From the IMG/VR virus record IMGVR_UViG_3300032214_000528, positions 71,032 to 135,031 of that record: 64,000 nucleotides of DNA, one strand, 5' to 3'. The stretch comes from a virus. Positions 469 through 21,100 of this stretch are shown here, one piece after another. Positions within the stretch are counted from its first letter, which is position 1, and each line of letters begins with the position of its first letter. Under the pieces are notes generated by a model. That model was not told the DNA's origin. It saw nothing but the letters and a program-made list of their open reading frames with translations, and ran no database searches. The position numbers were made by a program, and so were the translations under genes.

Positions 469-701
469 GAGTAAAAGATTTGATTGAGCAGTTGAGAGCC
501 TATGACGGAGAGGACGAGTTGATTGTCTGCTACTGGGACAAAGAAACGGTGCATGGATACGGCTCGCCTGAAGTAACGGACGAGGAGTGGAGTGAGGTCA
601 TCGAAAGGTATAACAACGGTGAGTGGCATTTCCAAAGCTCGGCTGCCGAGGATTTTGTAGAGATAGTGCAAGAAGTGGTTTCCGAACGAATTACCGAGTA
701 A
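465..701 (+). CDS. Hypothetical acidic protein
   Basis: ORF track; GGAAGG RBS and GTGA coupling. Confidence 0.7.
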   Translation: MRVKDLIEQLRAYDGEDELIVCYWDKETVHGYGSPEVTDEEWSEVIERYNNGEWHFQSSAAEDFVEIVQEVVSERITE

Positions 702-759
702 ATTATAAAAGGTATGATAGGCTTGCCTAGCAATACCAAATGACGAAAGGAACAGGGAA

Positions 760-1650: not shown

Positions 1651-1733
1651 TTTGTGGCGAGGGGTAAAAAGCGAACGGCCGGGGATCAAGCTGGAGGGCC
1701 CGGAAAAAAGAATACGAGGTTCAAGAGCCCTAA

Positions 1734-1755
1734 ATGCAGAAAGGTATGATAGGAT
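1734..1755 (+). promoter_or_regulatory. Early promoter ATGCAG-N10-TAGGAT
   Basis: Member of a 10-copy promoter family. Confidence 0.65.
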
Positions 1756-1790
1756 TACCTTGTTCAGACAAACTAGGGAAAGGCAAGACA

Positions 1791-2177
1791 ATGGACATAA
1801 TGGAAAAGCACACGGTTGAATTGACTAGCGATTGCACTTGCACCAATGAGGACGGCACGCCTAGCACCGATTGTTTTGATTGCTGGGACGACTCGGTATG
1901 GTTGTTCAAGGACTTGATGAACACTTGGCGTAAGACGGTCGGAGTAAATTGGAACACGGTTAGAATTACTGGCCGGGGTATGGGTTGGCAACGCACTAGC
2001 GGAGAAGCCGTAGTGTCTTTCGATAAAGTGTTGGACGCACTAAAGATAAACGGGGACTTTACTTTACGGTTCAAGCAAGAGGGCTTAGTCCTTACGGCAA
2101 CACGGTCAAGCCACGATGAGCCTACGGGTGCAGGGTTTTCTTTCACCCTTATCAAAGATGAAGAGGGAGAGGGGTAA
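1791..2177 (+). CDS. Hypothetical protein
   Basis: ORF 1734-2177; upstream part is promoter, AGGGAAAGG RBS precedes ATG 1791. Confidence 0.75.
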   Translation: MDIMEKHTVELTSDCTCTNEDGTPSTDCFDCWDDSVWLFKDLMNTWRKTVGVNWNTVRITGRGMGWQRTSGEAVVSFDKVLDALKINGDFTLRFKQEGLVLTATRSSHDEPTGAGFSFTLIKDEEGEG

Positions 2178-2180
2178 AAA

Positions 2181-2324
2181 GTGGGGAAAGATTATCTATC
2201 TATACTTATGGAGTGGAAGCCCGAGGGGGACTTTACCGAAGCTGATCTCTGGGACGCTATCGCTGAAGCCGAAGGCGTAGATGTAAGCGAGATAAGTGAT
2301 AGGGACTTGACCGAGTTTATCTAG
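2181..2324 (+). CDS. Small acidic hypothetical protein
   Basis: GTG directly after GGGGTAAAAA (alternative ATG 2208); ...WDAIAEAEGVDVSEISDRDLTEFI. Confidence 0.55.
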   Translation: MGKDYLSILMEWKPEGDFTEADLWDAIAEAEGVDVSEISDRDLTEFI

Positions 2325-2340
2325 CGGTTCGATTGTGAAA

Positions 2341-2362
2341 GTGCAGAAAGGTATGATAGGAT
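2341..2362 (+). promoter_or_regulatory. Early promoter GTGCAG-N10-TAGGAT
   Basis: Near-identical to 1734-1755. Confidence 0.65.
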
Positions 2363-2471
2363 AAAGGTATCTCGGTGGGGGGAAGTCGCTGGTCACCTGA
2401 ACGACCTGAAACCTAGGGGGTCGGAAACAATACGACTCCCCACCGAGTCTATAACTAGGGAGAGGTAAAAA

Positions 2472-2591
2472 ATGAAAATAACGGACGATTATGATTACGC
2501 TAAAGATGTATGGCTAATAAAATGCGTAGAGTGTGGCGTAAGTATGAGCCGTGAAGCATACGCTTACGGACACGATTGCGAGGTGGCGTAA
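2472..2591 (+). CDS. Small Cys/His hypothetical protein (39 aa)
   Basis: GAGGTAAAAA RBS; TAATG coupling to the next gene. Confidence 0.55.
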   Translation: MKITDDYDYAKDVWLIKCVECGVSMSREAYAYGHDCEVA

Positions 2592-2857
2592 TGGGTATGA
2601 GAGGTGAGGTAGGTCGGTTTGATTTACAACAAGAAAAGATAACCGAGCTTAGATTGGCTAAGGCTAGATTAGAGGATGCTCAAAAAGTTTTTTGGGAGTG
2701 TTTGCTAGGTTCTAGTAAAGCAGGAGTAACACACAGAGAGATTGCGGAAGCTACTGGATTTAGTCGTGCCAATGTAATGTATCACTTAAGAAAGATACAA
2801 GATAATAATCCTTTCTTTATAGGAGATGCCAATGCGAATAGGGGTAAAAAGAAATGA
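2591..2857 (+). CDS. Helix-turn-helix DNA-binding protein
   Basis: THREIAEATGFSRANVMYHL HTH pattern. Confidence 0.7.
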   Translation: MGMRGEVGRFDLQQEKITELRLAKARLEDAQKVFWECLLGSSKAGVTHREIAEATGFSRANVMYHLRKIQDNNPFFIGDANANRGKKK

Positions 2858-3180
2858 ACGATCAAGACTCGATAAGCTGGGGAGAGCTGGCGGAATTGAC
2901 TCACGCTACGCAGGTGGAACGATTTGGTTTTTGTATGTGTGAGGACAATGAAGGGAACGAAAACCCTTATGCCGATTGTAATAAATACTACTCAACCGAT
3001 TTATCTATCTCTATTGTGGAGATAAAGGCAGATAGCAAAGAACAAGCTGAAGCGATTATGCAAGAGTTTATAGACAAGATTGCACCGATTATGGACGACA
3101 AGATTAGGTGGGACGAAGCTAACTGGGAGATTGAGGAAAGTGTCCTAGATAAGAAAGCTGGGGAGTGGATAACAAACTAA
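2854..3180 (+). CDS. Hypothetical protein
   Basis: ORF track; ATGA coupling. Confidence 0.7.
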   Translation: MNDQDSISWGELAELTHATQVERFGFCMCEDNEGNENPYADCNKYYSTDLSISIVEIKADSKEQAEAIMQEFIDKIAPIMDDKIRWDEANWEIEESVLDKKAGEWITN

Positions 3181-3198
3181 GACTCACCGAGGCTTGAT

Positions 3199-3227
3199 TT
3201 GAAAATGTCAGGATAATCAAATACAAT
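3199..3227 (+). promoter_or_regulatory. Early promoter TTGAAA-17-TACAAT with internal TGTCAG
   Basis: -35 at 3199, TGTCAG at 3206, -10 at 3222. Confidence 0.75.
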
Positions 3228-3280
3228 AAAGCTACTCGGTTACAGTAGCCGATTAACTAGGGAAAGAGTCAAATAAATAA

Positions 3281-3373
3281 ATGAGAACACTCCAAGAAAA
3301 ACTAGATGCCGTGGCAAAAGATTTAGATGTTGTTATGGCTGATTTGTTAGATGAGCTTGGTCTAAATGACTAA
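3281..3373 (+). CDS. 30-aa peptide MRTLQEKLDAVAKDLDVVMADLLDELGLND
   Basis: AGGGAAAG RBS; has its own promoter and terminator. Confidence 0.6.
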   Translation: MRTLQEKLDAVAKDLDVVMADLLDELGLND

Positions 3374-3385
3374 GTAGTCAGAGAG

Positions 3386-3416
3386 AAGCCCCCGCTAAAA
3401 GGCGGGGGTTTCTTTC
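3386..3416 (+). terminator. Intrinsic terminator
   Basis: CCCCCGC-loop-GCGGGGG followed by TTTCTTT. Confidence 0.8.
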
Positions 3417-3459
3417 TTTATAGGATAAACTTATAGGGGTAAAAAGAAAGGGAAAAGTT

Positions 3460-3765
3460 ATGGATCAGATTATGGATACACGAACCGTTATGTTTATTGG
3501 AGATTATTTTTCAATGATGGTTACGGTAGGCGTTCCCGAAGAAGCGGTAAAAGAGGGCGAGATCTATGAAGATGCCTGTCTTAGAGTAGCTGGGACTTTA
3601 ATGAAAGAACACTACGGCTGGGATGTTGTTGCCGTAAGTAATCACATAGGGGTTTTAGATGAGGGAGACCCTAACTGCGAAACTTGTTATGGGGCTGGAA
3701 AGATGAAAGCCGAGGTAGCTGGTGTGGCAAGAGATGTAGAGTGCCCCGATTGTTTTAATGGTTAG
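3460..3765 (+). CDS. Hypothetical protein with C-terminal CxxC/CxxC
   Basis: CETC...CPDC, DnaJ-like zinc pattern. Confidence 0.7.
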   Translation: MDQIMDTRTVMFIGDYFSMMVTVGVPEEAVKEGEIYEDACLRVAGTLMKEHYGWDVVAVSNHIGVLDEGDPNCETCYGAGKMKAEVAGVARDVECPDCFNG

Positions 3766-3963
3766 GGGTAAAAAGTAGACTTACCGATTATGATAAGATT
3801 AGGTCACCGGGTCGAGCGAACTTCCCTTTCTGCTCCCCGTTGAGATAAGCACTTGTGCTTATCGCACCGCCCCTTGCTCTCCCTAGCAGGGGTGCGGTGT
3901 GTCTAATTGTAATTATTATAGAGATTAGATAAGCTAGATCTAAATCGACAAGAGGGGTAAAAA

Positions 3964-4221
3964 ATGACAAACAACACAATTCAACTCACCGAGTATTTAA
4001 ATAAAGAGTGGGGACAATTAATAGGGGCAAAACTTTTAAGTATTAGAAGCGCTACCGAAGATGAAGCAGATGAGATGATGGGCTGGGACTTTAGCAACCA
4101 TCACGCTGTGCCGATTTTAGAGTTTGACAATGGGCTAAGCCTAATTCTTTCTCAAGATGAAGAAGGTAATGGCGCAGGGTTTGCGTTTCTAGTTGAGGAA
4201 AGTCAGGAAGGTGTGTTATAG
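3964..4221 (+). CDS. Hypothetical protein
   Basis: AGGGGTAAAAA RBS; ILSQDEEGNGAG motif. Confidence 0.7.
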   Translation: MTNNTIQLTEYLNKEWGQLIGAKLLSIRSATEDEADEMMGWDFSNHHAVPILEFDNGLSLILSQDEEGNGAGFAFLVEESQEGVL

Positions 4222-4259
4222 TTATCCTACTCGCAGGGAGCGAGAGAAAAAGAGGGAAA

Positions 4260-4595
4260 ATGAAAACAGCCGTGAAAGTTACAACAGAGGGAACAGTCTC
4301 TGTGATTGACCTACAAGCAGACAGCAACGAGTTGGGAACTTTACAGAGTGCCGTTGGTGGTTTGATTGAGGTAGCAACTCTACAAAGTGGATACACAATG
4401 TTTATGAACGAAGAAGGAAAAATCCACGAACTTCCAATCAACGAGAAAGCCACCGCAATTTGGTTGGCTAACTTCCCTAACTTCCCTGATGTAATCTTGG
4501 GAGATGTTGTTCTAGCAGGAGCAACAGACGAAGAAGGAGAACAACTAGGGCTAGACCCCGACTACGCACAACGCTTGGTCGAACTTCTAGCATAA
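4260..4595 (+). CDS. DUF3846-like protein
   Basis: LQSAVGGLIE...MNEEGK...N..AT...ILGDVVL pattern. Confidence 0.7.
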   Translation: MKTAVKVTTEGTVSVIDLQADSNELGTLQSAVGGLIEVATLQSGYTMFMNEEGKIHELPINEKATAIWLANFPNFPDVILGDVVLAGATDEEGEQLGLDPDYAQRLVELLA

Positions 4596-4608
4596 AAGTA
4601 GTAGAGGA

Positions 4609-4635
4609 ACCCCTGCCGAGAGGTGGGGGTTTTTC
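4609..4635 (+). terminator. Intrinsic terminator
   Basis: CCCCTGCC-GAGA-GGTGGGGG followed by a T-run. Confidence 0.75.
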
Positions 4636-4687
4636 TATTGTATAGGGGTAAAAATCAGGGTTCACCGATCAAGGTATCTTTAGAGGT

Positions 4688-4930
4688 ATGCAAATAGTTC
4701 AGAAGGTTTATCACCCTAACGGGAGTTCAGCTCCGTTTGTTGTGGCAATAGTTGATGACCCTGCCGAGGCAGATACTAAATTAGTTATTATGTTTGAAGA
4801 ACCCGAGTGCACTGCGGTTTTCTCTTTAGATGGTCTTATTCAAGATGAAGACATTTCAGAGAAAAACTCTAGTCACGCCGAGCGTTATGAATACGCTTTG
4901 CGTGATGAGCTGTGGGATAATCGTTACTAG
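4688..4930 (+). CDS. Hypothetical protein
   Basis: ORF track. Confidence 0.65.
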   Translation: MQIVQKVYHPNGSSAPFVVAIVDDPAEADTKLVIMFEEPECTAVFSLDGLIQDEDISEKNSSHAERYEYALRDELWDNRY

Positions 4931-4942
4931 GGGTAAAAAACT

Positions 4943-5512
4943 ATGACAACAATAGCGAGTGTTCAAGGTGATGGCTGGGCTGTTGTTGGTTATGACTCAA
5001 GAGTTACCGAGGAAGATGGCAGAACTTATACCTTGCCGAAAGAAGCAGGAAAAGTTTTTAAGAGTGGTAATTACATAATTGGTGTTGCGGGAGATGTTAG
5101 AGCAATCAATTTAATGACTCACGTTTTTAAGGCACCGCCTTGCACAGGATCAACTTTAGGGGTAAAACTAGATAAGTTTATGACTGCGGTCTTTATCCCG
5201 GAACTAAAGAAATGTTTTGAGGAAGCCTCTTACTCAAAAGATGGCGACCAAGAAAGTCAGATTATGATTTTAATAAATGGAACTATCTACGAGATAGGCG
5301 AAGATTATTCTTGGTGCCACGACATTGCGGGTATCTATGCTATTGGTTCAGGTGCCGACTTTGCTTTAGGTGCGCTCAATGCTTTATCAGAGGGCAAGAA
5401 CAGAACTCTTACTACTGCAAGAGCAACGATCAAAACTGCGCTCGCCGTCTCAGCTAAGTTCGATAATAAGACTTCCGAACCTTTTTACCTCTTGACTCAA
5501 TACCGAGACTAG
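4943..5512 (+). CDS. Ntn-hydrolase, proteasome-beta/HslV-like peptidase
   Basis: MTTI N-terminal Thr, DSRVT, K, GVAG and AIGSG motifs. Confidence 0.8.
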   Translation: MTTIASVQGDGWAVVGYDSRVTEEDGRTYTLPKEAGKVFKSGNYIIGVAGDVRAINLMTHVFKAPPCTGSTLGVKLDKFMTAVFIPELKKCFEEASYSKDGDQESQIMILINGTIYEIGEDYSWCHDIAGIYAIGSGADFALGALNALSEGKNRTLTTARATIKTALAVSAKFDNKTSEPFYLLTQYRD

Positions 5513-5616
5513 CAATCCCCACAAACTGCGCCATTGGTGTAGTGGTCTTGATTGATTTGGAACTTCTGCCCACACTTCCAACAGTTGATGTAAATCATTA
5601 CTGCTTTTCTAGCCAT
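5509..5616 (-). CDS. 35-aa zinc-ribbon peptide
   Basis: MARKAVMIYINCWKCGQKFQINQDHYTNGAVCGDC; AGGGAGAAACA RBS; own promoter. Confidence 0.6.
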   Translation of the reverse strand: MARKAVMIYINCWKCGQKFQINQDHYTNGAVCGDC

Positions 5617-5647
5617 TATGTTTCTCCCTTGTTTGGCTTGTAGGATT

Positions 5648-5719
5648 ATCATAACAGATTTTCCTGACAAACTCTAAGACACGCCGAGAGTTGCAAAGTG
5701 CAGGAAGGTCTGTTATTAT
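5648..5719. promoter_or_regulatory. Divergent promoter pair
   Basis: Minus: TGTCAG(5669-5664)-N10-TATGAT; plus: TTGCAA-17-TATTAT with GTGCAG at 5698; GACACGCC between them. Confidence 0.75.
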
Positions 5720-5745
5720 TTTCTTATAGGGAAAGGAAAACAAAA

Positions 5746-5952
5746 ATGTGGGGATTACCTGATAGCGCAATCTTGGGAACTATCAAAAGCCTAAAGAGTC
5801 ATAAGGGCGGAAGAAAAAGTAGTGCCGTATCAAAGCCAAGCAGAGAGATAACTCTTGCTCAATCTTGGGAGTGTTTTGACCAAGACTCTAGAAGCCTAGA
5901 GGAACTACTTGCTATGGCTCGCCTAACTATAAAGAAGCAACACGCCGAATAA
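5746..5952 (+). CDS. Hypothetical basic protein
   Basis: ORF 5698-5952; AGGGAAAGG RBS favours ATG 5746. Confidence 0.6.
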   Translation: MWGLPDSAILGTIKSLKSHKGGRKSSAVSKPSREITLAQSWECFDQDSRSLEELLAMARLTIKKQHAE

Positions 5953-5961
5953 GCAGGGAAG

Positions 5962-5990
5962 TTGCAAAGTGCAGGAAGGTCGTGTAGTAT
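5962..5990 (+). promoter_or_regulatory. Early promoter TTGCAA-17-TAGTAT with GTGCAG
   Basis: TTGCAAAGTGCAGGAAGGTC identical to 5691-5710. Confidence 0.75.
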
Positions 5991-6030
5991 TTACTTATTG
6001 GCTAAGGGAGCCAAAGAAAGCAGGGAGAAA

Positions 6031-6186
6031 ATGAAAACACAAGCAAAGTTTATTCGTCGCAGAATTGCCGTTGGAGTTATTGCGCTCGCCCTTATCGCTT
6101 GGGCGTTTGACGCTACAACACCTGAAATGTGCAAAGTTCCAACAGAGCAGATGAACCAATTCTGCCTAGACCTGTTGTATCCATAA
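6031..6186 (+). CDS. Small membrane protein
   Basis: RRR followed by a hydrophobic helix; AGGGAGAAA RBS. Confidence 0.65.
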   Translation: MKTQAKFIRRRIAVGVIALALIAWAFDATTPEMCKVPTEQMNQFCLDLLYP

Positions 6187-6198
6187 GGGGGAGAGCAA

Positions 6199-6435
6199 AT
6201 GCCTAGACTTAGAAAACCTCAACCGATTTTGTTAAATGATGATGAACTCTATGCGCTTATGCTAGCCACATTTAAACACCCTAAAGTTCCTAAATGGAAG
6301 CCAACAGGTTATGAACTAGGGCTACTAAAAGACGCTTACGAAAAAATTGCTACAGAGTATTACGCTCGAGCCGAAGAACAACAACGCATTGACGAGGAAC
6401 TACGACTAATAAGAGCAGAATACGAGGGGGTTTAA
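6199..6435 (+). CDS. Hypothetical protein
   Basis: ORF track; GGGGGAG RBS. Confidence 0.65.
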   Translation: MPRLRKPQPILLNDDELYALMLATFKHPKVPKWKPTGYELGLLKDAYEKIATEYYARAEEQQRIDEELRLIRAEYEGV

Positions 6436-6437
6436 GT

Positions 6438-6644
6438 ATGAGCGAAGAAGGTTCAGAGTCATACAACAAAGCAAAACAAAGATGGGGTAAGGGAGAAGAA
6501 CTTACAGACCAAGAGTTCGCCTGTCTTTTAATGAGGTCTTGCGGAGTCTCTAATTTAGTTGGGGCTTTAGGTTATGGACACGCTAACGAGTGCGGTTTTT
6601 GTGATGGGTCTAAACAAGTAGACCCTAGAAGTTATAGGGGGTAA
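6438..6644 (+). CDS. Hypothetical protein
   Basis: ORF track. Confidence 0.6.
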   Translation: MSEEGSESYNKAKQRWGKGEELTDQEFACLLMRSCGVSNLVGALGYGHANECGFCDGSKQVDPRSYRG

Positions 6645-6648
6645 AAAG

Positions 6649-6840
6649 ATGATGTTTGATCTTGGCTTTGGGCTACCGACTTATTTAGCTCATCTAACTA
6701 TTGGGGTTGGTCGCTACACCCTTTGGCTCAACATTGTGGCTACTAACTGGAGAACCTTTCACTTTGGCAAAAGGTGGGGCGACTGGGTTGGTTGTTTCTC
6801 TGTCTTTACTTTTGCTTACACTATAAAAGAGAGGGGGTAA
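6649..6840 (+). CDS. Hypothetical protein
   Basis: GGGGTAAAAA RBS. Confidence 0.55.
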   Translation: MMFDLGFGLPTYLAHLTIGVGRYTLWLNIVATNWRTFHFGKRWGDWVGCFSVFTFAYTIKERG

Positions 6841-6842
6841 AA

Positions 6843-7019
6843 ATGTATTTAGATACGGGAACCTTGTTTGCAATAGTGATTGCGCTCGCTGGCTCATGCT
6901 TTGTTATGGTAGTTGGTATCAGAGCGCAGGGTCAGTTGCACCGAGTCATTAACCAAAAGAACGAGAAGATCAGATTTCTCCAAGCCGAACTACTAAAAGA
7001 AAAGAGAGTAACTCAATAG
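6843..7019 (+). CDS. Small membrane protein with coiled-coil tail
   Basis: ORF 6774-7019; GGGGTAAAA RBS favours ATG 6843. Confidence 0.65.
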   Translation: MYLDTGTLFAIVIALAGSCFVMVVGIRAQGQLHRVINQKNEKIRFLQAELLKEKRVTQ

Positions 7020-7213
7020 TGAAGATTGAAAAGATTACAGATGAGGCAGTTCGCCTTTACGAAGGTGGGCTATCTCTAGAGGCAGTAGCCAAAGAACTAG
7101 GCGTTGCCTACCGAACCGCAAGAAAGGCTGTCTACGGGGCTGGAGTGGTCGTTAGAGACCCCTCTAATCGTTTAGTGGGCAGAACTAGACCTGATAAGAG
7201 AGTGAGCGCATGA
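7019..7213 (+). CDS. Helix-turn-helix protein
   Basis: LYEGGLSLEAVAKELGVAYRTARK. Confidence 0.75.
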   Translation: MKIEKITDEAVRLYEGGLSLEAVAKELGVAYRTARKAVYGAGVVVRDPSNRLVGRTRPDKRVSA

Positions 7214-7365
7214 ATACCAACAACATAGTTTGGACAGCAGTCGTATCCCTAGCCCTTGGCTTGGCTTGCCTTGTGGCAGGTTATCAAGGTAATGACTCAA
7301 TGGCGCTCGCCTTTGGGTTAACCTCAGTAGCCTCAGCAACTCTATCTGCTAGAGAGAAGCGATAA
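7210..7365 (+). CDS. Two-TM small membrane protein
   Basis: Read manually: MNTNNIVWTAVVSLALGLACLVAG...; ATGA coupling. Confidence 0.55.
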   Translation: MNTNNIVWTAVVSLALGLACLVAGYQGNDSMALAFGLTSVASATLSAREKR

Positions 7366-7383
7366 AGCTTTAAGGCTTTCTAA

Positions 7384-7423
7384 GTGCGGGAAGGTAGGAA
7401 AAACCTGCCTTCCTGCATTTTTT
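7384..7423 (+). terminator. Intrinsic terminator
   Basis: GCGGGAAGGTAGG / CCTGCCTTCCTGC stem followed by a T-run. Confidence 0.75.
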
Positions 7424-7680
7424 ATGGAGCATTTAGGTTTTATTATAGATTTAAGGCTGTCAGCAGGGGATTTACGCTTAGAGTGTGAAATAAACCTCAA
7501 TCTGATAGGCTAAAAAAGTGTCGGATTAACCTGACATTGCGGTATAGTTTATCCAAGCAAGACAAGTGACATAAGGAGATCTACGGATTAGACACTTGAA
7601 GTAAGGCTGTCCCCAAGAGCGGGGTGGCAAGGCTGTTAACACTTATAGCCTGTCCCTGTCCCCTAACAAAGGAAAACCAA

Positions 7681-8253
7681 ATGAAGCAATCTCTAAAGCA
7701 ACGCCATTTGCAGGAGTTGATAGCACTAATGTCTTTGACAGTAGTTCTAGCCTCTACCGCAGTAGCAGTAGCGCAGAGTCCAGAGCAAATGGAACCAGTT
7801 CAACAAGTTGTAGTAGTTCCAGAAGTAGTAGAAGTAAAACCGAAGCTTTCAGACTTTGAGAACAAAACCTCTCTCACCGATACAGAATTGAGAGATCTTC
7901 TCATTGCAGTTGGCTTTGAAGGCAAAGCCCTTCGCATTGCGTGGGCTATTGCAAAGAAGGAGTCCAATGGTCGCCCGCTTGCTTTCAATGGCAACGCAAA
8001 AACAGGCGATAGTTCCTACGGTGTCTATCAAATCAACATGATTGGTGACTTAGGCCCGGATCGAAGAATTAAGTTTTCACTTGATTCAAACTCAGACCTT
8101 TTCAATCCAGTAATCAACGCTCAAATTGCTCACCACATGAGCAAGGGTGGAGAAGATTTTTCCGCATGGAAGATCTCCAAGAGCGACTATAATAGTGCTA
8201 CGGCGGAACCTAAGTTTCAAATGTGGCTTAAGAAGTTCCCCGAAGGAAAGTAG
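7681..8253 (+). CDS. Lysozyme-like transglycosylase (SLT) with N-terminal signal/TM segment
   Basis: IAKKES catalytic Glu, SYGVYQIN, NPVINA motifs; AAAGGA RBS before ATG 7681. Confidence 0.8.
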   Translation: MKQSLKQRHLQELIALMSLTVVLASTAVAVAQSPEQMEPVQQVVVVPEVVEVKPKLSDFENKTSLTDTELRDLLIAVGFEGKALRIAWAIAKKESNGRPLAFNGNAKTGDSSYGVYQINMIGDLGPDRRIKFSLDSNSDLFNPVINAQIAHHMSKGGEDFSAWKISKSDYNSATAEPKFQMWLKKFPEGK

Positions 8254-8258
8254 GAAAC

Positions 8259-8681
8259 ATGAGCGAAGAACTCAGACCCCTAGTAGGTTCAATAGTTCCG
8301 CCTGTGGTGACACCTGCGGAAGAGCCAAAGCCAACCCCTGCGCTCGCAGTTGAGCCAAAGGTTGAAGAGGTCAAAGAAGTAAAGAAGGAAATCAAGTCAG
8401 CCCCAAAGGTTAAGAGAGATGCCAACACAATTATTTCTCTTTCTGCTTTGAAGGTTGGTGCTATGGCTGGTAACTCTTCTTCTGTTCAGACTGTTCAGTT
8501 GCGTCTTAAAGACCTAGGTTTTGACGCAGTTGTTCGAGATAAGTTTGGCAGACTAGGAGAAGGAAGTGTTGAAGCGATCAACGCTTACCGAAAGTCAGTA
8601 GGCTTAGAAGAGTGCGGTTGCTTTAATGAAGAAGTTCTCGCTTATCTCTTTGACGGTCTAGATGTAGGAGTTGGAGCGTAG
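8259..8681 (+). CDS. Peptidoglycan-binding-domain protein
   Basis: VQTVQLRLKDLGF...G.LG..S.EAI..YRK..GL pattern. Confidence 0.6.
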   Translation: MSEELRPLVGSIVPPVVTPAEEPKPTPALAVEPKVEEVKEVKKEIKSAPKVKRDANTIISLSALKVGAMAGNSSSVQTVQLRLKDLGFDAVVRDKFGRLGEGSVEAINAYRKSVGLEECGCFNEEVLAYLFDGLDVGVGA

Positions 8682-8789
8682 TAGCTACCTTTCCAATTTC
8701 TATCAGCGCCCAGTTGCTCAAGTAAAATTGAGAGGCTGGGCGTTGGTATTTCTAGCGCCTAAGTGCGGGACATTGAAAGGACAGCACTC

Positions 8790-9071
8790 ATGGCAGTAAT
8801 CAAGAAAGAAAAGAACAAGCAGTTCGAGAAAACTAAGATGATTGTTTCAAGAGTCATTGCGGTTTTCGCTGCGTCAGGATTATCAGTAGTCGGTGCTGGC
8901 TCTATTGTCGGTATTGAACTAACTCAAGCAGTAACCCTTGCGGGTGCTCTTGGTGTTGCTACTGTCTTGGAAGCGTTGGCTCGTGCCTACCTTGCAGACG
9001 GAAAATTAACTACTGCCGAAATCGATCAAGCCTTTGCTTTGGTTGATAAGGGTAGAAGTTCTTCTTCTTAA
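8790..9071 (+). CDS. Holin-like membrane protein
   Basis: Basic N-terminus, two hydrophobic segments; AAGGA RBS. Confidence 0.5.
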   Translation: MAVIKKEKNKQFEKTKMIVSRVIAVFAASGLSVVGAGSIVGIELTQAVTLAGALGVATVLEALARAYLADGKLTTAEIDQAFALVDKGRSSSS

Positions 9072-9086
9072 TTCTGAAAAGCAAAG

Positions 9087-9119
9087 AACCCCCCAACCTT
9101 TGCGGTTGAGGGGTTTTTT
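9087..9119 (+). terminator. Intrinsic terminator between convergent units
   Basis: CCCCCCAACC-loop-GGTTGAGGGG followed by a T-run. Confidence 0.75.
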
Positions 9120-9130
9120 GTTTGACGGAT

Positions 9131-9271
9131 TTACTTAGAGTTCTTTAGTTCTGTTAGCCACATTTCTAGAAGTTCAGCCCTTGCGGTGTTGCCTTCCGAT
9201 AGTGCCTCTAGAAGTTGTTTTGTTATTTGTTCAATTGTTCTGTCGTTGATCAGTTGTGAAGTTGAAGCCAT
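9131..9271 (-). CDS. Hypothetical protein (46 aa)
   Basis: AGGGAA RBS before MASTSQLIND. Confidence 0.55.
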   Translation of the reverse strand: MASTSQLINDRTIEQITKQLLEALSEGNTARAELLEMWLTELKNSK

Positions 9272-9364
9272 TTCCCTACTTCCTTTCTTGTTCGATTGGG
9301 TCTTGAAGTAATGCAATTGCAGTTCCTAGAACCCCTGCGATTATTGCTACGGTTGCTATTAACA

Positions 9365-9487
9365 TTATGCCCCCAAAATAAAACATAGAGCGATTGCAAC
9401 TGCTACACCAACAAAAGCGCCAATAGGTGCGCCAACATCAGCGTTTTCATCAAGCCAGTCAATTACTGCGGTGAATGGATTTGTCAT
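9365..9487 (-). CDS. Small membrane protein (40 aa)
   Basis: MTNPFTAVIDW...; AGGGAGAAACAAA RBS. Confidence 0.6.
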   Translation of the reverse strand: MTNPFTAVIDWLDENADVGAPIGAFVGVAVAIALCFILGA

Positions 9488-9527
9488 TTTGTTTCTCCCT
9501 TTTGGTTCTCCCTGAACCATTGATAAA

Positions 9528-9556
9528 ACTATAAACCTTCTTCCTGACATTTGCAA
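9528..9556 (-). promoter_or_regulatory. Promoter TTGCAA-17-TATAGT with TGTCAG-N10
   Basis: Read directly from the reverse strand. Confidence 0.75.
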
Positions 9557-9569
9557 GAGACACGCCCAA

Positions 9570-9598
9570 CAAAAAACCCCCCGATTTCTCGAGGGGTT
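9570..9598 (-). terminator. Intrinsic terminator
   Basis: GC hairpin with an A-run on its + strand 5' side. Confidence 0.65.
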
Positions 9599-9615
9599 CT
9601 TCGGGGAGTTGGTCA

Positions 9616-9882
9616 TTAAACCTCTGTAGCCCTGCCGTCCTCAACTTGCTTGAGGAAGTCTTGAACTATCTCTAGTGCGTCCTTTCGTCCTTGAAGTCCT
9701 CTGAACTTTGGAAGTCCGATTTGATCTCCGATAAGTCTTGCAAAAGTGCGGAGAGCAGGTTCTGAAGTCATTTGCATTTTACTTCCGCCGTATGTCTTGA
9801 TTTCAAGTTCTAGTGACATTTTGATTAGTTCAAGTTGGATAGGGCTAACTGCTAACTCTACGGTCATTGGTGATGTTGTCAT
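9616..9882 (-). CDS. Hypothetical protein
   Basis: ORF track; AGGGAGAAACAAA RBS. Confidence 0.7.
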   Translation of the reverse strand: MTTSPMTVELAVSPIQLELIKMSLELEIKTYGGSKMQMTSEPALRTFARLIGDQIGLPKFRGLQGRKDALEIVQDFLKQVEDGRATEV

Positions 9883-9929
9883 TTTGTTTCTCCCTTTTGT
9901 TTTTCGGTTCTCCCTGAACCGTTAGGAAA

Positions 9930-9959
9930 AGAATACATGACCTTCCTGACATTTGTCAA
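9930..9959 (-). promoter_or_regulatory. Promoter TTGACA-18-TATTCT with TGTCAG-N10
   Basis: Read directly from the reverse strand. Confidence 0.8.
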
Positions 9960-9997
9960 GATAAGATCAAAAAGCTTTTACGGCGTGTCGGGAAAAG

Positions 9998-10028
9998 AAA
10001 AACCCCCCCGAGGGAAGTCAGGGGGGTT
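9998..10028 (-). terminator. Intrinsic terminator
   Basis: C7/G6 stem with a flanking A-run. Confidence 0.6.
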
Positions 10029-10040
10029 AGTTCTTTGCGG

Positions 10041-10313
10041 TTACTTGGTAAGGAGAAGTTCCAAGATTTCGCCGTCAGTAAGTTCTTTGTAACTACCGTT
10101 GAAAGGACTTGTGTAAGAACCTTTATTCTCATCTGTTACGGCAACCTTTACAACTTCTGCATTCATTCCCTTTGCATTCTTTGCGGTTTCAGTAATCAGG
10201 CTACTTGCACCTTGTGCGGTATCAACATGGAAGTTGTAGTTTGTTTCCTTTGTGATTGTTCCTGTTGATGTTGTCTCTGAATACTTTACTGTGATTGATA
10301 CTCCGTATGACAT
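10041..10313 (-). CDS. Hypothetical protein
   Basis: ORF 10041-10415; AGGGAGAAACAA RBS favours ATG 10313 (MSYGVSITVKY). Confidence 0.7.
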   Translation of the reverse strand: MSYGVSITVKYSETTSTGTITKETNYNFHVDTAQGASSLITETAKNAKGMNAEVVKVAVTDENKGSYTSPFNGSYKELTDGEILELLLTK

Positions 10314-10360
10314 TTGTTTCTCCCTTTGTTTGTATTGGAACTCCCTGCTCCAATAAGATA

Positions 10361-10389
10361 AAGATACATGACCTTCCTGCACTTTGCAA
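10361..10389 (-). promoter_or_regulatory. Promoter TTGCAA-17-TATCTT with GTGCAG-N10
   Basis: Same TTGCAAAGTGCAGGAAGGTC core as 5691 and 5962. Confidence 0.75.
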
Positions 10390-10401
10390 GTTATAATAGG
10401 C

Positions 10402-10542
10402 AGATGACTAGTCATACTTTCTGACCTAGATTTCTGACCACTATCAAGACATGAGCCTAAGTTACTAGGTAGTAACTAGGTAGGCAAGTAGATGACTAGT
10501 CTTGTATCGAGTGACTTATCTAGACTGTCTATGACTGGTCAT
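10402..10542. repeat. Cluster of palindromes and short direct repeats
   Basis: ATGACTAGTCAT 10404-10415; AGTTACT-N4-AGTAACT 10460-10477; AGATGACTAGTC at 10402 and 10490; TTTCTGACC x2. Confidence 0.7.
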
Positions 10543-10944
10543 TTAAGTTCATAGACTTTAGACATTGAGAAGATGTAAGAAGAGTATCCAAGATGATAGA
10601 TGATAGATGTAAATCATAACTAACATAAAGCTTTTTTGTCTACAAAGGATAAATGTATGTATGCCTTTTTTGATCATTTTTGAAAGAAAATAAAAACAAA
10701 AGGGCACATAGGCACTTCTAAATCTGTAAAAAATTTAAAATACAGATAAAAATAAAAAGTTTTTTGAAGTTGCAAAACTAAAAGAAAAAAGGCCCGGAAC
10801 GATTTTGAAAATGTCAAAAACTATACGTACCCTTCTCACAGGCCAAAAGCAATTTATGTAAAGGTTCATCTTTTCTTCTTTGCCGTACAAGATTTCATCT
10901 CCTTTTCTTTGTACGACCTCTTGAACTTCAAGTACAATAAGCAT

Positions 10945-11445
10945 ATGATTAACCAGCCTCGACTCCCTTTAGATGAAGTCACCTACATTGCCTCTCTCCC
11001 TCGTGCTGAGTTGGAATCACGCCTACGGGCGCTGTGGAATGCTGGCTGGTCCCTCGCAATTATTGGAGATTCTCTAAATCCGCCTCGTCCAAAAACAACT
11101 ATCCACTTCTGGGTCCGTAGAGCTGAAGATGTAAAGCAGTTTAGGAACATCCCTGTTCCCCCTCCAAAGTCTCTTACTACTTCCGTGCCTACCAAGAATG
11201 CTCCTCGTCTGAGATCCATTTCTCCGGGCGTCCCTACCGATATAAGGCTTAGACTTAGAGAGCTGTCTATTCTCTCAAAGCGCTATCGTGCTAAGACATC
11301 CCCCGAGAGTCCTTTAGCCAGAGCAAATGTTGAGCTAACACAGATTGCCAAAGAATTAAGAAGCAGAGGCGTTCCTACCGCTGCCATAGCTGAAGCCGCA
11401 GGAGTCACCTACCGAGCTATGGCAAGACGACTCTCAAATGGCTAG
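10945..11445 (+). CDS. Protein with two HTH motifs
   Basis: LWNAGWSLAIIG...TTIHFWV and RGVPTAAIAEAAGVTYRAMARR; start at 10945 inferred from a -10 box 6 nt upstream. Confidence 0.7.
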   Translation: MINQPRLPLDEVTYIASLPRAELESRLRALWNAGWSLAIIGDSLNPPRPKTTIHFWVRRAEDVKQFRNIPVPPPKSLTTSVPTKNAPRLRSISPGVPTDIRLRLRELSILSKRYRAKTSPESPLARANVELTQIAKELRSRGVPTAAIAEAAGVTYRAMARRLSNG

Positions 11446-18100: not shown

Positions 18101-21100
18101 ATTCAGAAGACAAGATGTAAAAGACTTTTTAGATGATAATGGTTTTGATTGGAACCCAGATGCTAAGGCTGAAACAAAATCTGGTATGGATGAAGCAAGC
18201 GCTAAGAAGTTCCTTCGTGATTTAAGAGATAAATATGGTATTGATCTTCTTCCAAGAGAAGGACAGCCACCAATCGACCTTGAATCAAAGGACGAAGTAA
18301 TTGAAGCTCCTTCAACTCCTGAAACTCCATCTGCAAAGCCAAAAGAAAAGTCTCTCAAAGAAAGAGAAGAAGAAGAGTTCGGTAAGTTCTTACCTCTTCC
18401 AGATCCCTTACCTGAAGGTTGGGTAAAAGATGAAGAGCGTGGATTCAACGAAGTTTATTACATGCAAGCTGTTGAAAACGAAAACGGCGATAGAATTGTT
18501 GGAACATACGGTAAGGATGGAAGTAGAGACCCATACTGGACAGTAAGCGCTGACTTTGACTCGCCAGAATCATTTAAGTCTTTTGAAGATGCACTTGATT
18601 TCTATAACAAAAATTCTGGAAAGCAAACAGAAGACAGTGCCGAACCAGAGACTTCTGAAGACACAACACCTGTTGAAGATGTAGTTGAGCTATCCCCTAC
18701 TCTAAACGAAAAATTACTAAAGCGTGATGGCATCCAGATGGTAAAGATCACTGGCCCAAATGGAGAAGAGATTGAGACACCAGTCTTTAATCTTCGTGGT
18801 CGCCCTATGGTTTTAATCAATGTTAATGGTGTACGCATACCGTTCTACATTAGCTCGGGTAAAGGCGGTAAAGCAGGTGTTCCTGTTGGAAAGTGGTATC
18901 CAATCTTTGGAATCGGTACCGATGGCTGGTTTAATAAGGGCAACGAAGAAGAGATTAACAACTACTTCGATAGTCCAGAGCTAAGAGAGGTAGCTGAATG
19001 GCTTAACTCTAATATTGGAGATATCCGTAAAGAAGATATGCCAGAGTCTGACGAAGTCACTGACGAGCTTCGTGCACAGATAAACCAAGACCTATCTCCA
19101 GGTCGTTACTATGAAAACGCTGTTGTCTACGGAAATAGAGCTCTTGCCCTTGCAAAAATTAGGGGAGATGAAGAAGCAGTAAAACAAGAAGAAGCAATTC
19201 TTAAAAAATACCTAGACGATATAGCAAAATTTGAAGCTGAAAAGAAAAAGCAAGAAGAAGAAGGACAGGAAGAGCCAACTGTAGAAGAAGTAGTTCCTGA
19301 AGAAGAAGAAGTAAAAGAGCCTGTTGCTGAAGAACCTGCGGCAAAAAGGAATATCTTCCAAGAATCACTTGACATAATTCAAGAGGGACTTCTTGATGCA
19401 TTGTCAGAAGAAGGTCCTAACATAACTGTCTCAGAGTTAGTAGATAGACTGAAGCGTAAGCTAAAGGGTGATGACAAAGTTGTAGGAGATTATGGCACTA
19501 GAGGTGACATGATTAGCAAGCTCATGTGGGCTAAGTGGGGCGCTGGTTTCTGGAGAAACGAATCTCCATACATTAGAAGATCCATGAGCGAATACAAGTC
19601 TGAATTAAAGAAGCTCTCAGACGAAGAACTTATTGCATTAGTTGATATGTATTACGACGAGATTGATGCTCGTCTTGAAGCTGAGAGAGAAGCATCACGA
19701 CCAGTTGAACCAACGCCGCTTACTCCTGAAGAAGCTGCGGAAGTAGAGAGAAAGCGTAGAGTTAAAGAGCTTCGTGATAAGAAGCGCAGAGAGCGTGAAG
19801 ACAAGCTTCTAGAAGAAGATGATAAGGCTAAGGAAGAAGAAGAAAAGCCAACCCCTGCAACCCCTGCAACCCCTGCAACCCCTGCAACCCCTGCAACCCC
19901 TGCGAAGCCAACTCCTACAACCCCAGAAAAGCCTAAGCCATCTGATTACGAAGAAGACACTCCTGATGGATTTGTTTATGTTGACAAGAGCGACAATGAC
20001 GTTAAAGATGGAGATGAAATTAATCTCCCTAGTGTTGGCTGGGTAAAAGTTAAGAGAAAGGTTTTCCTTCCTGGTAGAACCACTGCAGATGTTGTCTATG
20101 AAGATGAAAATGGTAATGAAGGTACTGGTTTCTTACCTAGAACAGTTGAGACTCGTGCTAAGCAAGCTCCTGCTGAAGAACGCAATCGTAAGACTCCAGC
20201 AAAGCTTAGAGTCGGAGAAGAAGTCTATCTTGTTGATAAAGATGGAGATGGTCCTGGCTGGGTAAAGGTTCTAGAAGTAAAAAAGAGAAATTGGAATTCA
20301 GGGAACAGTAAAGGCGACCAAACCACATGGGAAATATGGTACGAAGATGCAAATGGAAAGCGTAGTCTTTGGACATATAACTACTGGAGCAGTAGCAGTT
20401 GGGGCGGAGACGGTCAAACTGGTAAGTTCCCTACTCGTCCTGCAACATCTAAAGCACCAGAACCTGTAGAAGAACCTTCAGTAACAGTTACGCCTCGCAT
20501 TGCTGCATCTAGAACAACAGATCTTAAGCCAGGCGATGTTATGACTAAGGACTTCTTTACAGTCACAAATGTAGAGCAAGGATTCGAGAAGAAGCGTGAT
20601 GGAGAAATGGTTCCAGCTTCTCGTGTCACTGGTTACTATCCTGGCGGAGTAGAGCAGTCAAGCAAGCTTTGGGCAGACGACGTTTTATTTGATGTATATC
20701 GTGATGTAACTCCTCCTGCAAAGGGAGATCTTCCAGAACTTAATCAGCCAAAGATGGGTGATTATGGAAAGCTCACAAAGGTCAATGGCGAATGGGAGCT
20801 AAAAGACCCAGCTGAGCAAAAGCAATTTGAACAAGACATGGAAAAGTATCAGGAGCAACTATCCACACAGAAGGCTCTTTGGGAAGCTCCAGTTGTTGAA
20901 GTTCCTGTAAAGGAATTTACACCTGAAAACACTCTCCACGTTGTCAACGCACTTGGTAAAGATCTCAAGCCAAACGATATTGCATTCCGTCGTGACGAGA
21001 ATGGTGAGCTCAGCGAGTTTTTCGTTATTGAAGAAGTTCTTCCAGGCACAGTTATGGTCCCTCGTGCAGATGGAAAGCCAGCAGAAGAGAAGGTTCAAAT

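Follow-up and report, generated by a model that had tools for sequence, protein, structure and literature searches.

In the cluster A mycobacteriophage L5, gp71 recognizes an operator and stoperators, asymmetric repressor sites that also lie outside promoters and are spread over the genome. Middle promoters of phage T4 consist of a MotA box at -30 and a -10 element; the MotA box replaces the -35, and AsiA and MotA are required (sigma appropriation). Promoters read by PafBC (RecA-NDp promoters; 'sigma adaptation') have the consensus tGTCgg-N10-tAnnnT, with the hexamer at -28 to -23, a nearly invariant GTC in which PafB contacts two G:C pairs, and no -35 (PMC8635444). Z-elements (AACCT, AACAT, AATGT, AAATT), as in T7 A1/A2-type promoters, lie 4 bp upstream of the -10 and are contacted by the beta-prime zipper of RNA polymerase (PMC3173786). 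Here we describe a family of promoters in a 64,000-nucleotide stretch of phage DNA (the window; positions 71,032 to 135,031 of IMG/VR virus record IMGVR_UViG_3300032214_000528) that carry a conserved 15-bp box in the spacer between -35 and -10. A preliminary description of the window had listed ten promoters with a PafBC-like element in the spacer and proposed that they wire the early genes of the phage to the host PafBC response.

We found that the box is confined to one part of the phage genome. A weight matrix built from the sites themselves and run across the whole 135-kb genome gave ten strong sites (≥19 bits), all between 1.7 and 10.4 kb of the window, and none in the other 125 kb. The next-best score was 16.7 bits, at a position without a -10. 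A small gene lies directly ahead of each of the ten sites, and most of the units terminate at a hairpin with a T-run behind it. In this genome, all copies of the box share one register relative to the -10, and all fall in a single 9-kb stretch made up of short promoter-gene-terminator units. The promoters drive about ten of these small units, which are probably early.

The conserved block (AAA-r-KK-CAGGAARGT) occupies -31 to -17 and ends 4 bp upstream of a TAnnnT. The -35 ahead of it is usually TTGCAA or TTGACA. A TTG-type -35 lies 17-18 nt from the -10 in 7 of the 10 window sites, in agreement with the preliminary statement that most have a usable -35. Leaders in the window are 40-110 nt long and contain a ribosome-binding site. 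There were 5 matches to TGTCAG-N10-TAnnnT in the window (0.67 expected) and 6 to RTGCAG-N10-TAnnnT (1.26 expected), and the earlier claim that the TGTCAG pattern is above chance was correct. Exact TGTCAG matches are at 3206(+), 5669(-), 9549(-) and 9951(-); the fifth, at 19402, is inside a 4,200-amino-acid (aa) open reading frame. CAGRAARGT-N4-TAnnnT is a sharper signature of the family (7 matches, 0.04 expected). A scan of the region for the generic sigma-70 consensus found no enrichment (17 matches vs 15.3 expected); the signal resides in the extended family motif and not in the hexamers.

The window is the final 64 kb of a 135,031-bp record that has 123-bp terminal repeats and 43% GC, and it encodes a siphovirus-type structural module. 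The capsid protein of the phage has its best match, with 74% identity, in the nearest named relative, Actinomycetia phage DSL-LC01 (OQ999401), and its next-best matches are in Microbacterium, Arthrobacter, Gordonia and Mycobacterium phages. The phage genome also contains three WhiB genes. These genes and the capsid relatives indicate that the phage infects actinobacteria, as the preliminary description had assumed. Assignment of a host from one of the WhiB proteins failed, as its matches are only distant (42-48% identity; Pedococcus and others). A search of named phages for near-identical sequence gave no match, a tRNA scan of the window found none, and the phage has no tyrosine integrase. At least 464 related contigs are present in IMG/VR, and 80 related lake-phage contigs or loci were used for the promoter comparison. 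From the sample numbers and the DSL-LC01 paper (PMC10611076), we take them to come from lakes and fresh water. The portal proteins of the relatives are 74-93% identical.

The box was conserved in these relatives. We collected every CAGGRARGT core in the 80 loci, leaving the flanks free, and obtained 181 distinct cores, 82 of which are followed by TAnnnT after exactly 4 nt. We then tabulated 83 distinct core-anchored sites, with the core (-25 to -17) fixed by the search pattern itself. A was present at -31, -30 and -29 in 72, 78 and 79 of the 83 sites, respectively. Position -28 is G or A, and -27/-26 is TG in 64% and GT in 30%. Information was 1.0-2.0 bits per position over -31 to -17, except at the variable positions -28 to -26 (0.5-1.1 bits). 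The N4 and the inner positions of the -10 were near random, and in the -35 box only the T at -35 was strongly kept. Because the search had fixed the core, we judged core conservation from alignments of upstream regions selected by the downstream protein and not by the motif; in these the box was again the most conserved block. Judged by these alignments, no other part of the promoter is as well conserved as the box throughout a large clade of lake actinophages.

The box is anchored to the -10 and not to the -35, because the distance to the -10 is fixed at 4 nt (82 cases) and the TTG starts either 10 or 11 nt before the core. It is also retained in members without a TTG. We considered and rejected a palindromic operator, with the -35 and the box as inverted repeats, since a given type of -35 is not associated with a given type of box. 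A Shine-Dalgarno-like GGAAGGT or an upstream open reading frame was rejected as well, since the N4 varies and the box is upstream of the expected transcript start. Separately, we observed that a sub-lineage of distant relatives (L064, L066, L069, L070) keeps TTGACA-AA-GTGCAGGAAGGT with CATACT in place of TAnnnT.

The variable positions take two main states. When the three positions before CAG were left free, 139 distinct sites comprised 68 TG, 43 GT and 28 others, and the intermediates GG and TT were rare. Two fitness peaks could explain this rarity, as could a pair of old alleles that recombination has spread. Grouped by downstream gene, the promoters change from one type to another: there are 20 TGC, 2 GTC and 6 AGC in the 4260 group and 8 TGT and 7 TGC in the 9616 group, and the 5969 group includes 11 AAG. 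Only some groups are uniform, such as the 10041 group (GTG in 26/27). A TTG at -35 was found in 88% (60/68) of TGC-type and 56% (24/43) of GTC-type sites (Fisher p = 2e-4; the sites are non-independent). On this evidence we regard GTC, which about a third of the members carry, as one of the states that two variable positions can take and not as the defining feature.

These properties are similar to those of PafBC promoters in some respects and different in others. In both, a second element sits between -35 and -10 in a fixed register to TAnnnT, with the same 10-nt spacing from hexamer to TAnnnT, and the hosts belong to the same phylum. The motif TGTCRG-N10-TAnnnT, which the preliminary description had called the established PafBC motif, does correspond to the published consensus (PMC8635444), and five or six window sites fit its core and spacing. 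GTCAG is at -27 to -23 in about a third of the phage members. However, the GTC is not conserved: it occupies -27 to -25 in 6 of the 11 window sites that we listed, half of the family sites carry TGC instead, and GT is the minority state in the relatives. The conserved part of the phage element is the longer stretch from -31 to -17, the phage sites usually have a -35, and they have long leaders rather than none.

We compared the phage sites with sites from possible hosts. We sampled 401 Actinomycetia genomes, many of them 1.2-1.5 Mb, and tested five small ones for WYL genes. Tandem WYL gene pairs were found in three of the five, one with 46-49% GC in the loci read (the phage itself is assigned no more closely than to the actinobacteria). 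In all three, recA is preceded by TGTCRG-N10-TAnnnT, in the 46-49% GC genome as TGTCAG-N10-TACCTT. We took 20 host-type sites from two small genomes with WYL pairs. The start codon is 5-9 nt past the -10 in 13 of them (leaderless), and for this reason we consider that they behave as real promoters. They have T at -29 (12/20), T at -22 (16/20) and G at -21 (12/20), and only 2/20 have TTG at -35. In contrast, the sites in the phage relatives have A at -29 (79/83), G at -22 (83/83) and A at -21 (69/83), and thus lack the host-like flanks (t before TGTC, TG after TGTCRG). The only sequence common to both sets is GTCAG, in a minority of phage sites. In three of the 1.3-Mb genomes, we also noticed that about half of the TGTCRG-N10-TAnnnT sites are clustered in a single 20-45 kb stretch (G267:C1:411-433 kb, G297:C1:422-457 kb, G401:C1:414-457 kb). 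Most of the clustered sites drive leaderless genes, and the cluster may be a compact PafBC-type damage island.

Based on these results, the proposal that all ten promoters are wired to host PafBC is not supported: the GTC is variable, CAGGAARGT lies outside the PafBC motif, and the -35 boxes and flanks differ. A PafBC-like mimic made by the phage, the other suggestion of the preliminary description, is unlikely because the phage has no WYL-domain protein; an unrelated phage factor would still fit that suggestion in spirit. A reduced role for PafBC might also be imagined, in which the GTC members are read by host PafBC-RNA polymerase on single-stranded DNA (ssDNA), during damage or infection, and the TGC members are plain SigA promoters with the -35 compensating for the lost GTC. 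Six window sites fit tGTCgg-N10-tAnnnT in exact register, small low-GC actinobacterial genomes have both the tandem WYL pairs and TGTCAG-N10-TACCTT before recA, and the intermediates GG and TT are rare. The lower frequency of TTG in GTC-type sites points the same way, as a hint only among related sites. We nevertheless consider this dual mode unlikely. GTC is found in only ~30% of sites, and a gene whose promoter has GTC in one relative may have TGC or AGC in another. Within the window, -35 quality does not differ between the two types, and the host-type sites differ from the phage sites in flanks, in mostly lacking a -35 and in their mostly leaderless starts. The dual mode also leaves the invariant CAGGAARGT unexplained.

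The box could be a contact for RNA polymerase itself, with its 3' part a Z-element for the beta-prime zipper and no extra factor. The phage sites resemble Z-elements in having an AAnnT-like sequence (AARGT) exactly 4 bp upstream of the -10. A Z-element can replace a -35 and occurs in strong phage early promoters (PMC3173786), and the box persists in members without a TTG. But single-base changes in Z-elements have effects of less than 2-fold and the consensus is loose (PMC3173786), a poor match for nine near-invariant bases in a 15-bp box of much higher information content. The 5' half of the box (-31 to -23) falls outside the Z-element, where no polymerase contact is known, and none of the sampled actinobacterial genomes uses the box. 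A strong promoter intrinsic to polymerase therefore seems quite doubtful to us. It is very improbable that the box has no separate function and that the similarity was inherited through duplication and gene conversion among promoter cassettes. The promoters are paralogous, and discrete TG and GT states could spread by recombination between copies. However, the N4, the inner -10 and much of the -35 have diverged in the same cassettes and the box has not, and it has been retained across relatives as different as their portal proteins indicate.

Other phage systems provide partial parallels. As in T4 middle promoters, a class-specific phage element above a normal -10 would mark a temporal class; unlike those promoters, the sites in this phage keep their -35. 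The L5-type stoperators are likewise short asymmetric sites repeated many times in an actinophage and overlapping an early promoter. They differ in distribution: all ten strong copies here are in one promoter register within 9 kb, and not genome-wide or outside promoters, and the integrase is missing. In DSL-LC01, the corresponding stretch of small genes (57% GC) contains ~25 copies of a single long early promoter that is likewise conserved from copy to copy. Unlike the promoters described here, these combine an extended -10 with partly complementary arms on its two sides, and they lack both a -35 and a GTC at -26. The DSL-LC01 promoter (L107, record 28000-50000) reads ATTCTAAAGATGT-TATAAT-AGAATC and is followed by a fixed ribosome-binding leader, ACGACGAAAGGACA; its flanking arms sometimes co-vary.

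We favor the explanation that the box is a clade-specific element read by one dedicated factor, probably phage-encoded, and we give this a probability of roughly 45%. The promoters would be composite and would be used by the housekeeping RNA polymerase of the host (sigma-A type), with the TAnnnT as -10 and the usual TTGCAA or TTGACA as -35, and the box would be the docking site of a single sequence-specific factor acting on all genes of the class jointly. Such a factor would more likely be encoded by the phage than by the host, because none of the sampled actinobacterial genomes contains the box and a different one is found in the sister lineage. A strict 14-base pattern for the full box in promoter register had 0 matches in the 401 Actinomycetia genomes. 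The exact-pattern scan of IMG/VR was swamped by single chance matches, so that only multi-copy contigs are informative; all contigs with several copies of the box are relatives of the phage. Because most members already have a good -35 and -10, shut-off or autoregulation by the factor may be slightly preferred over help to the polymerase. The AARGT-N4 at the Z-element position may add intrinsic strength.

Two small proteins are candidates for the factor. A 64-aa helix-turn-helix (HTH) protein is encoded at 7019..7213(+) and has weak matches to Pfam HTH_23 and HTH_7, below the curated cut-offs. It is present in 24/24 relatives whose contigs reach 8 kb or more beyond the portal gene on its upstream side, and DSL-LC01 has a homologue that is 40% identical. 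Its gene is predicted to lie under the 5969(+) promoter, itself a box promoter, and the candidate would then be made from one of the promoters that it reads. An 88-aa winged-helix or sigma-region-4-like protein (2591..2857(+)), also with weak Pfam HTH matches, is a second candidate reader. It was not seen in the 10-kb flanks of the relatives, which barely reach its position. For both proteins we found no solved structural relatives, and when the small early proteins were searched against PHROGs, Pfam and PDB, these two weak HTH candidates were all that emerged. A sigma70 region 2 and a phage-encoded sigma factor are both absent.

Several points weigh against a dedicated factor. The reader of the box is a predicted factor only, and both HTH matches are weak and generic. 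The homologue of the 64-aa protein in DSL-LC01 coexists with a different box. The strict register to the -10 and the persistence without a -35 would also fit an element intrinsic to RNA polymerase or a host sigma-adaptor. An early promoter that depends on a phage protein requires injection of that protein, and the early timing is itself assumed. The host search used the strict 14-base pattern, and the sample of 401 genomes may miss the real host. It is conceivable, though improbable, that the box is a new '-24 element' read in the -10 register by an adaptor. This adaptor would be made by the phage, and perhaps injected, or would be a further sigma-adaptor of the host in addition to PafBC, and the GTC members may also answer PafBC. 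An injected exonuclease-helicase protein would make ssDNA, letting the GTC members respond to PafBC.

Individual promoters differ mainly in the -35 and in the type of box. The promoter at 1726..1755(+) is TGC type (ATGCAG), has no clear -35 and drives gene 1791-2177; TATGAT, 4 nt upstream of its TAGGAT, is an alternative -10. The next, at 2333..2362(+) (TGC type, GTGCAG), drives 2472-2591 (a zinc ribbon), the 88-aa HTH gene and 2854-3180. At 3198..3227(+), a GTC-type site (TGTCAG) with the -35 TTGAAA and a degenerate 3' half of the box drives 3281-3372. Gene 4260-4595 is driven from 4193..4222(+), the 4201(+) promoter (GTC type, AGTCAG; TTGAGG at 18 nt). Two promoters are back to back: 5648..5677(-), GTC type with a poor -35, drives a 35-aa zinc-ribbon gene (5616-5509), and 5690..5719(+), TGC type with TTGCAA-17-TATTAT, drives 5746-5952. 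The promoter at 5961..5990(+) (TGC type, TTGCAA-17-TAGTAT) drives the gene run 6031-7365, with the 64-aa HTH gene among its members. On the minus strand, 9528..9557(-) (GTC type, TTGCAA-17-TATAGT) drives 9487-9365, 9930..9959(-) (GTC type, TTGACA-18-TATTCT) drives 9882-9616, and 10361..10390(-) (TGC type, TTGCAA-17-TATCTT) drives 10313-10041, with GTGCAG in 26/27 relatives. A degenerate paralogue of the 1734 and 2341 promoters, in which the CAG is lost (ATTATA for ATGCAG), is at 694..723(+) and scores 9.8 bits.

Nine of the ten promoters listed in the preliminary description are exact sites, with minus-strand positions off by ~5 nt, and the 4201(+) promoter was absent from its list. All ten strong sites point into a gene, and 4201(+) overlaps the 3' end of gene 3964-4221. 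Its remaining site, 10812..10833(+) with TGTCAA, was rejected: it scores 11.7 bits, which is background, and neither the TGTCAA nor the TACCCT is conserved in 38 relatives. The surroundings are conserved in these relatives although the hexamer and the -10 vary, and the site is a chance match within a different conserved block. This non-coding block (10780-10905, upstream of gene 10909-11445) contains GCCCGGAACGATTTTGAAAA ... CCTTCTC ... CAAAAGCAA ... AAAGGTTCAT, and may serve as a late promoter, as a leader RNA or in packaging.

Other features were seen nearby. A 12-bp palindrome (ATGACTAGTCAT, with near variants) occurs three times just upstream of the 10382(-) promoter, at 10401-10412, 10489-10500 and 10528-10539. 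The first copy is conserved in relatives, and the palindromes look like a putative operator to which a dimeric regulator would bind, in the divergent region that precedes the structural genes. The leaders at 5990-6020, 9890-9925 and 10320-10350 contain short hairpins with AGGGA(G) in the loop, directly before a second ribosome-binding site. GGGGTAAAAA recurs at the stop/start junctions of many genes between 2171 and 6850 of the window, its TAA being the stop codon of the upstream gene. Gene 4943-5512 encodes an HslV- or proteasome-beta-like peptidase with an N-terminal Met-Thr-Thr; it is present in 20/24 relatives, and the DSL-LC01 homologue (49% identity) is annotated as HslV.

As far as sequence comparison can define it, the promoter family is real and clade-wide, and its defining feature is the 15-bp spacer box and not the PafBC triplet. 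Because the triplet is the variable part of the element in this clade, arrays of TGTCAG-N10-TAnnnT in lake actinophages should not automatically be taken as PafBC mimicry. If the box were a '-24 element' read by an adaptor, early-gene switching throughout this clade of abundant lake actinophages would work in a manner like sigma adaptation. The hosts are abundant, mostly uncultured lake actinobacteria, and the conserved box, usable as a probe in pull-downs, gel shifts and in vitro transcription, offers a handle on how these phages take over transcription.

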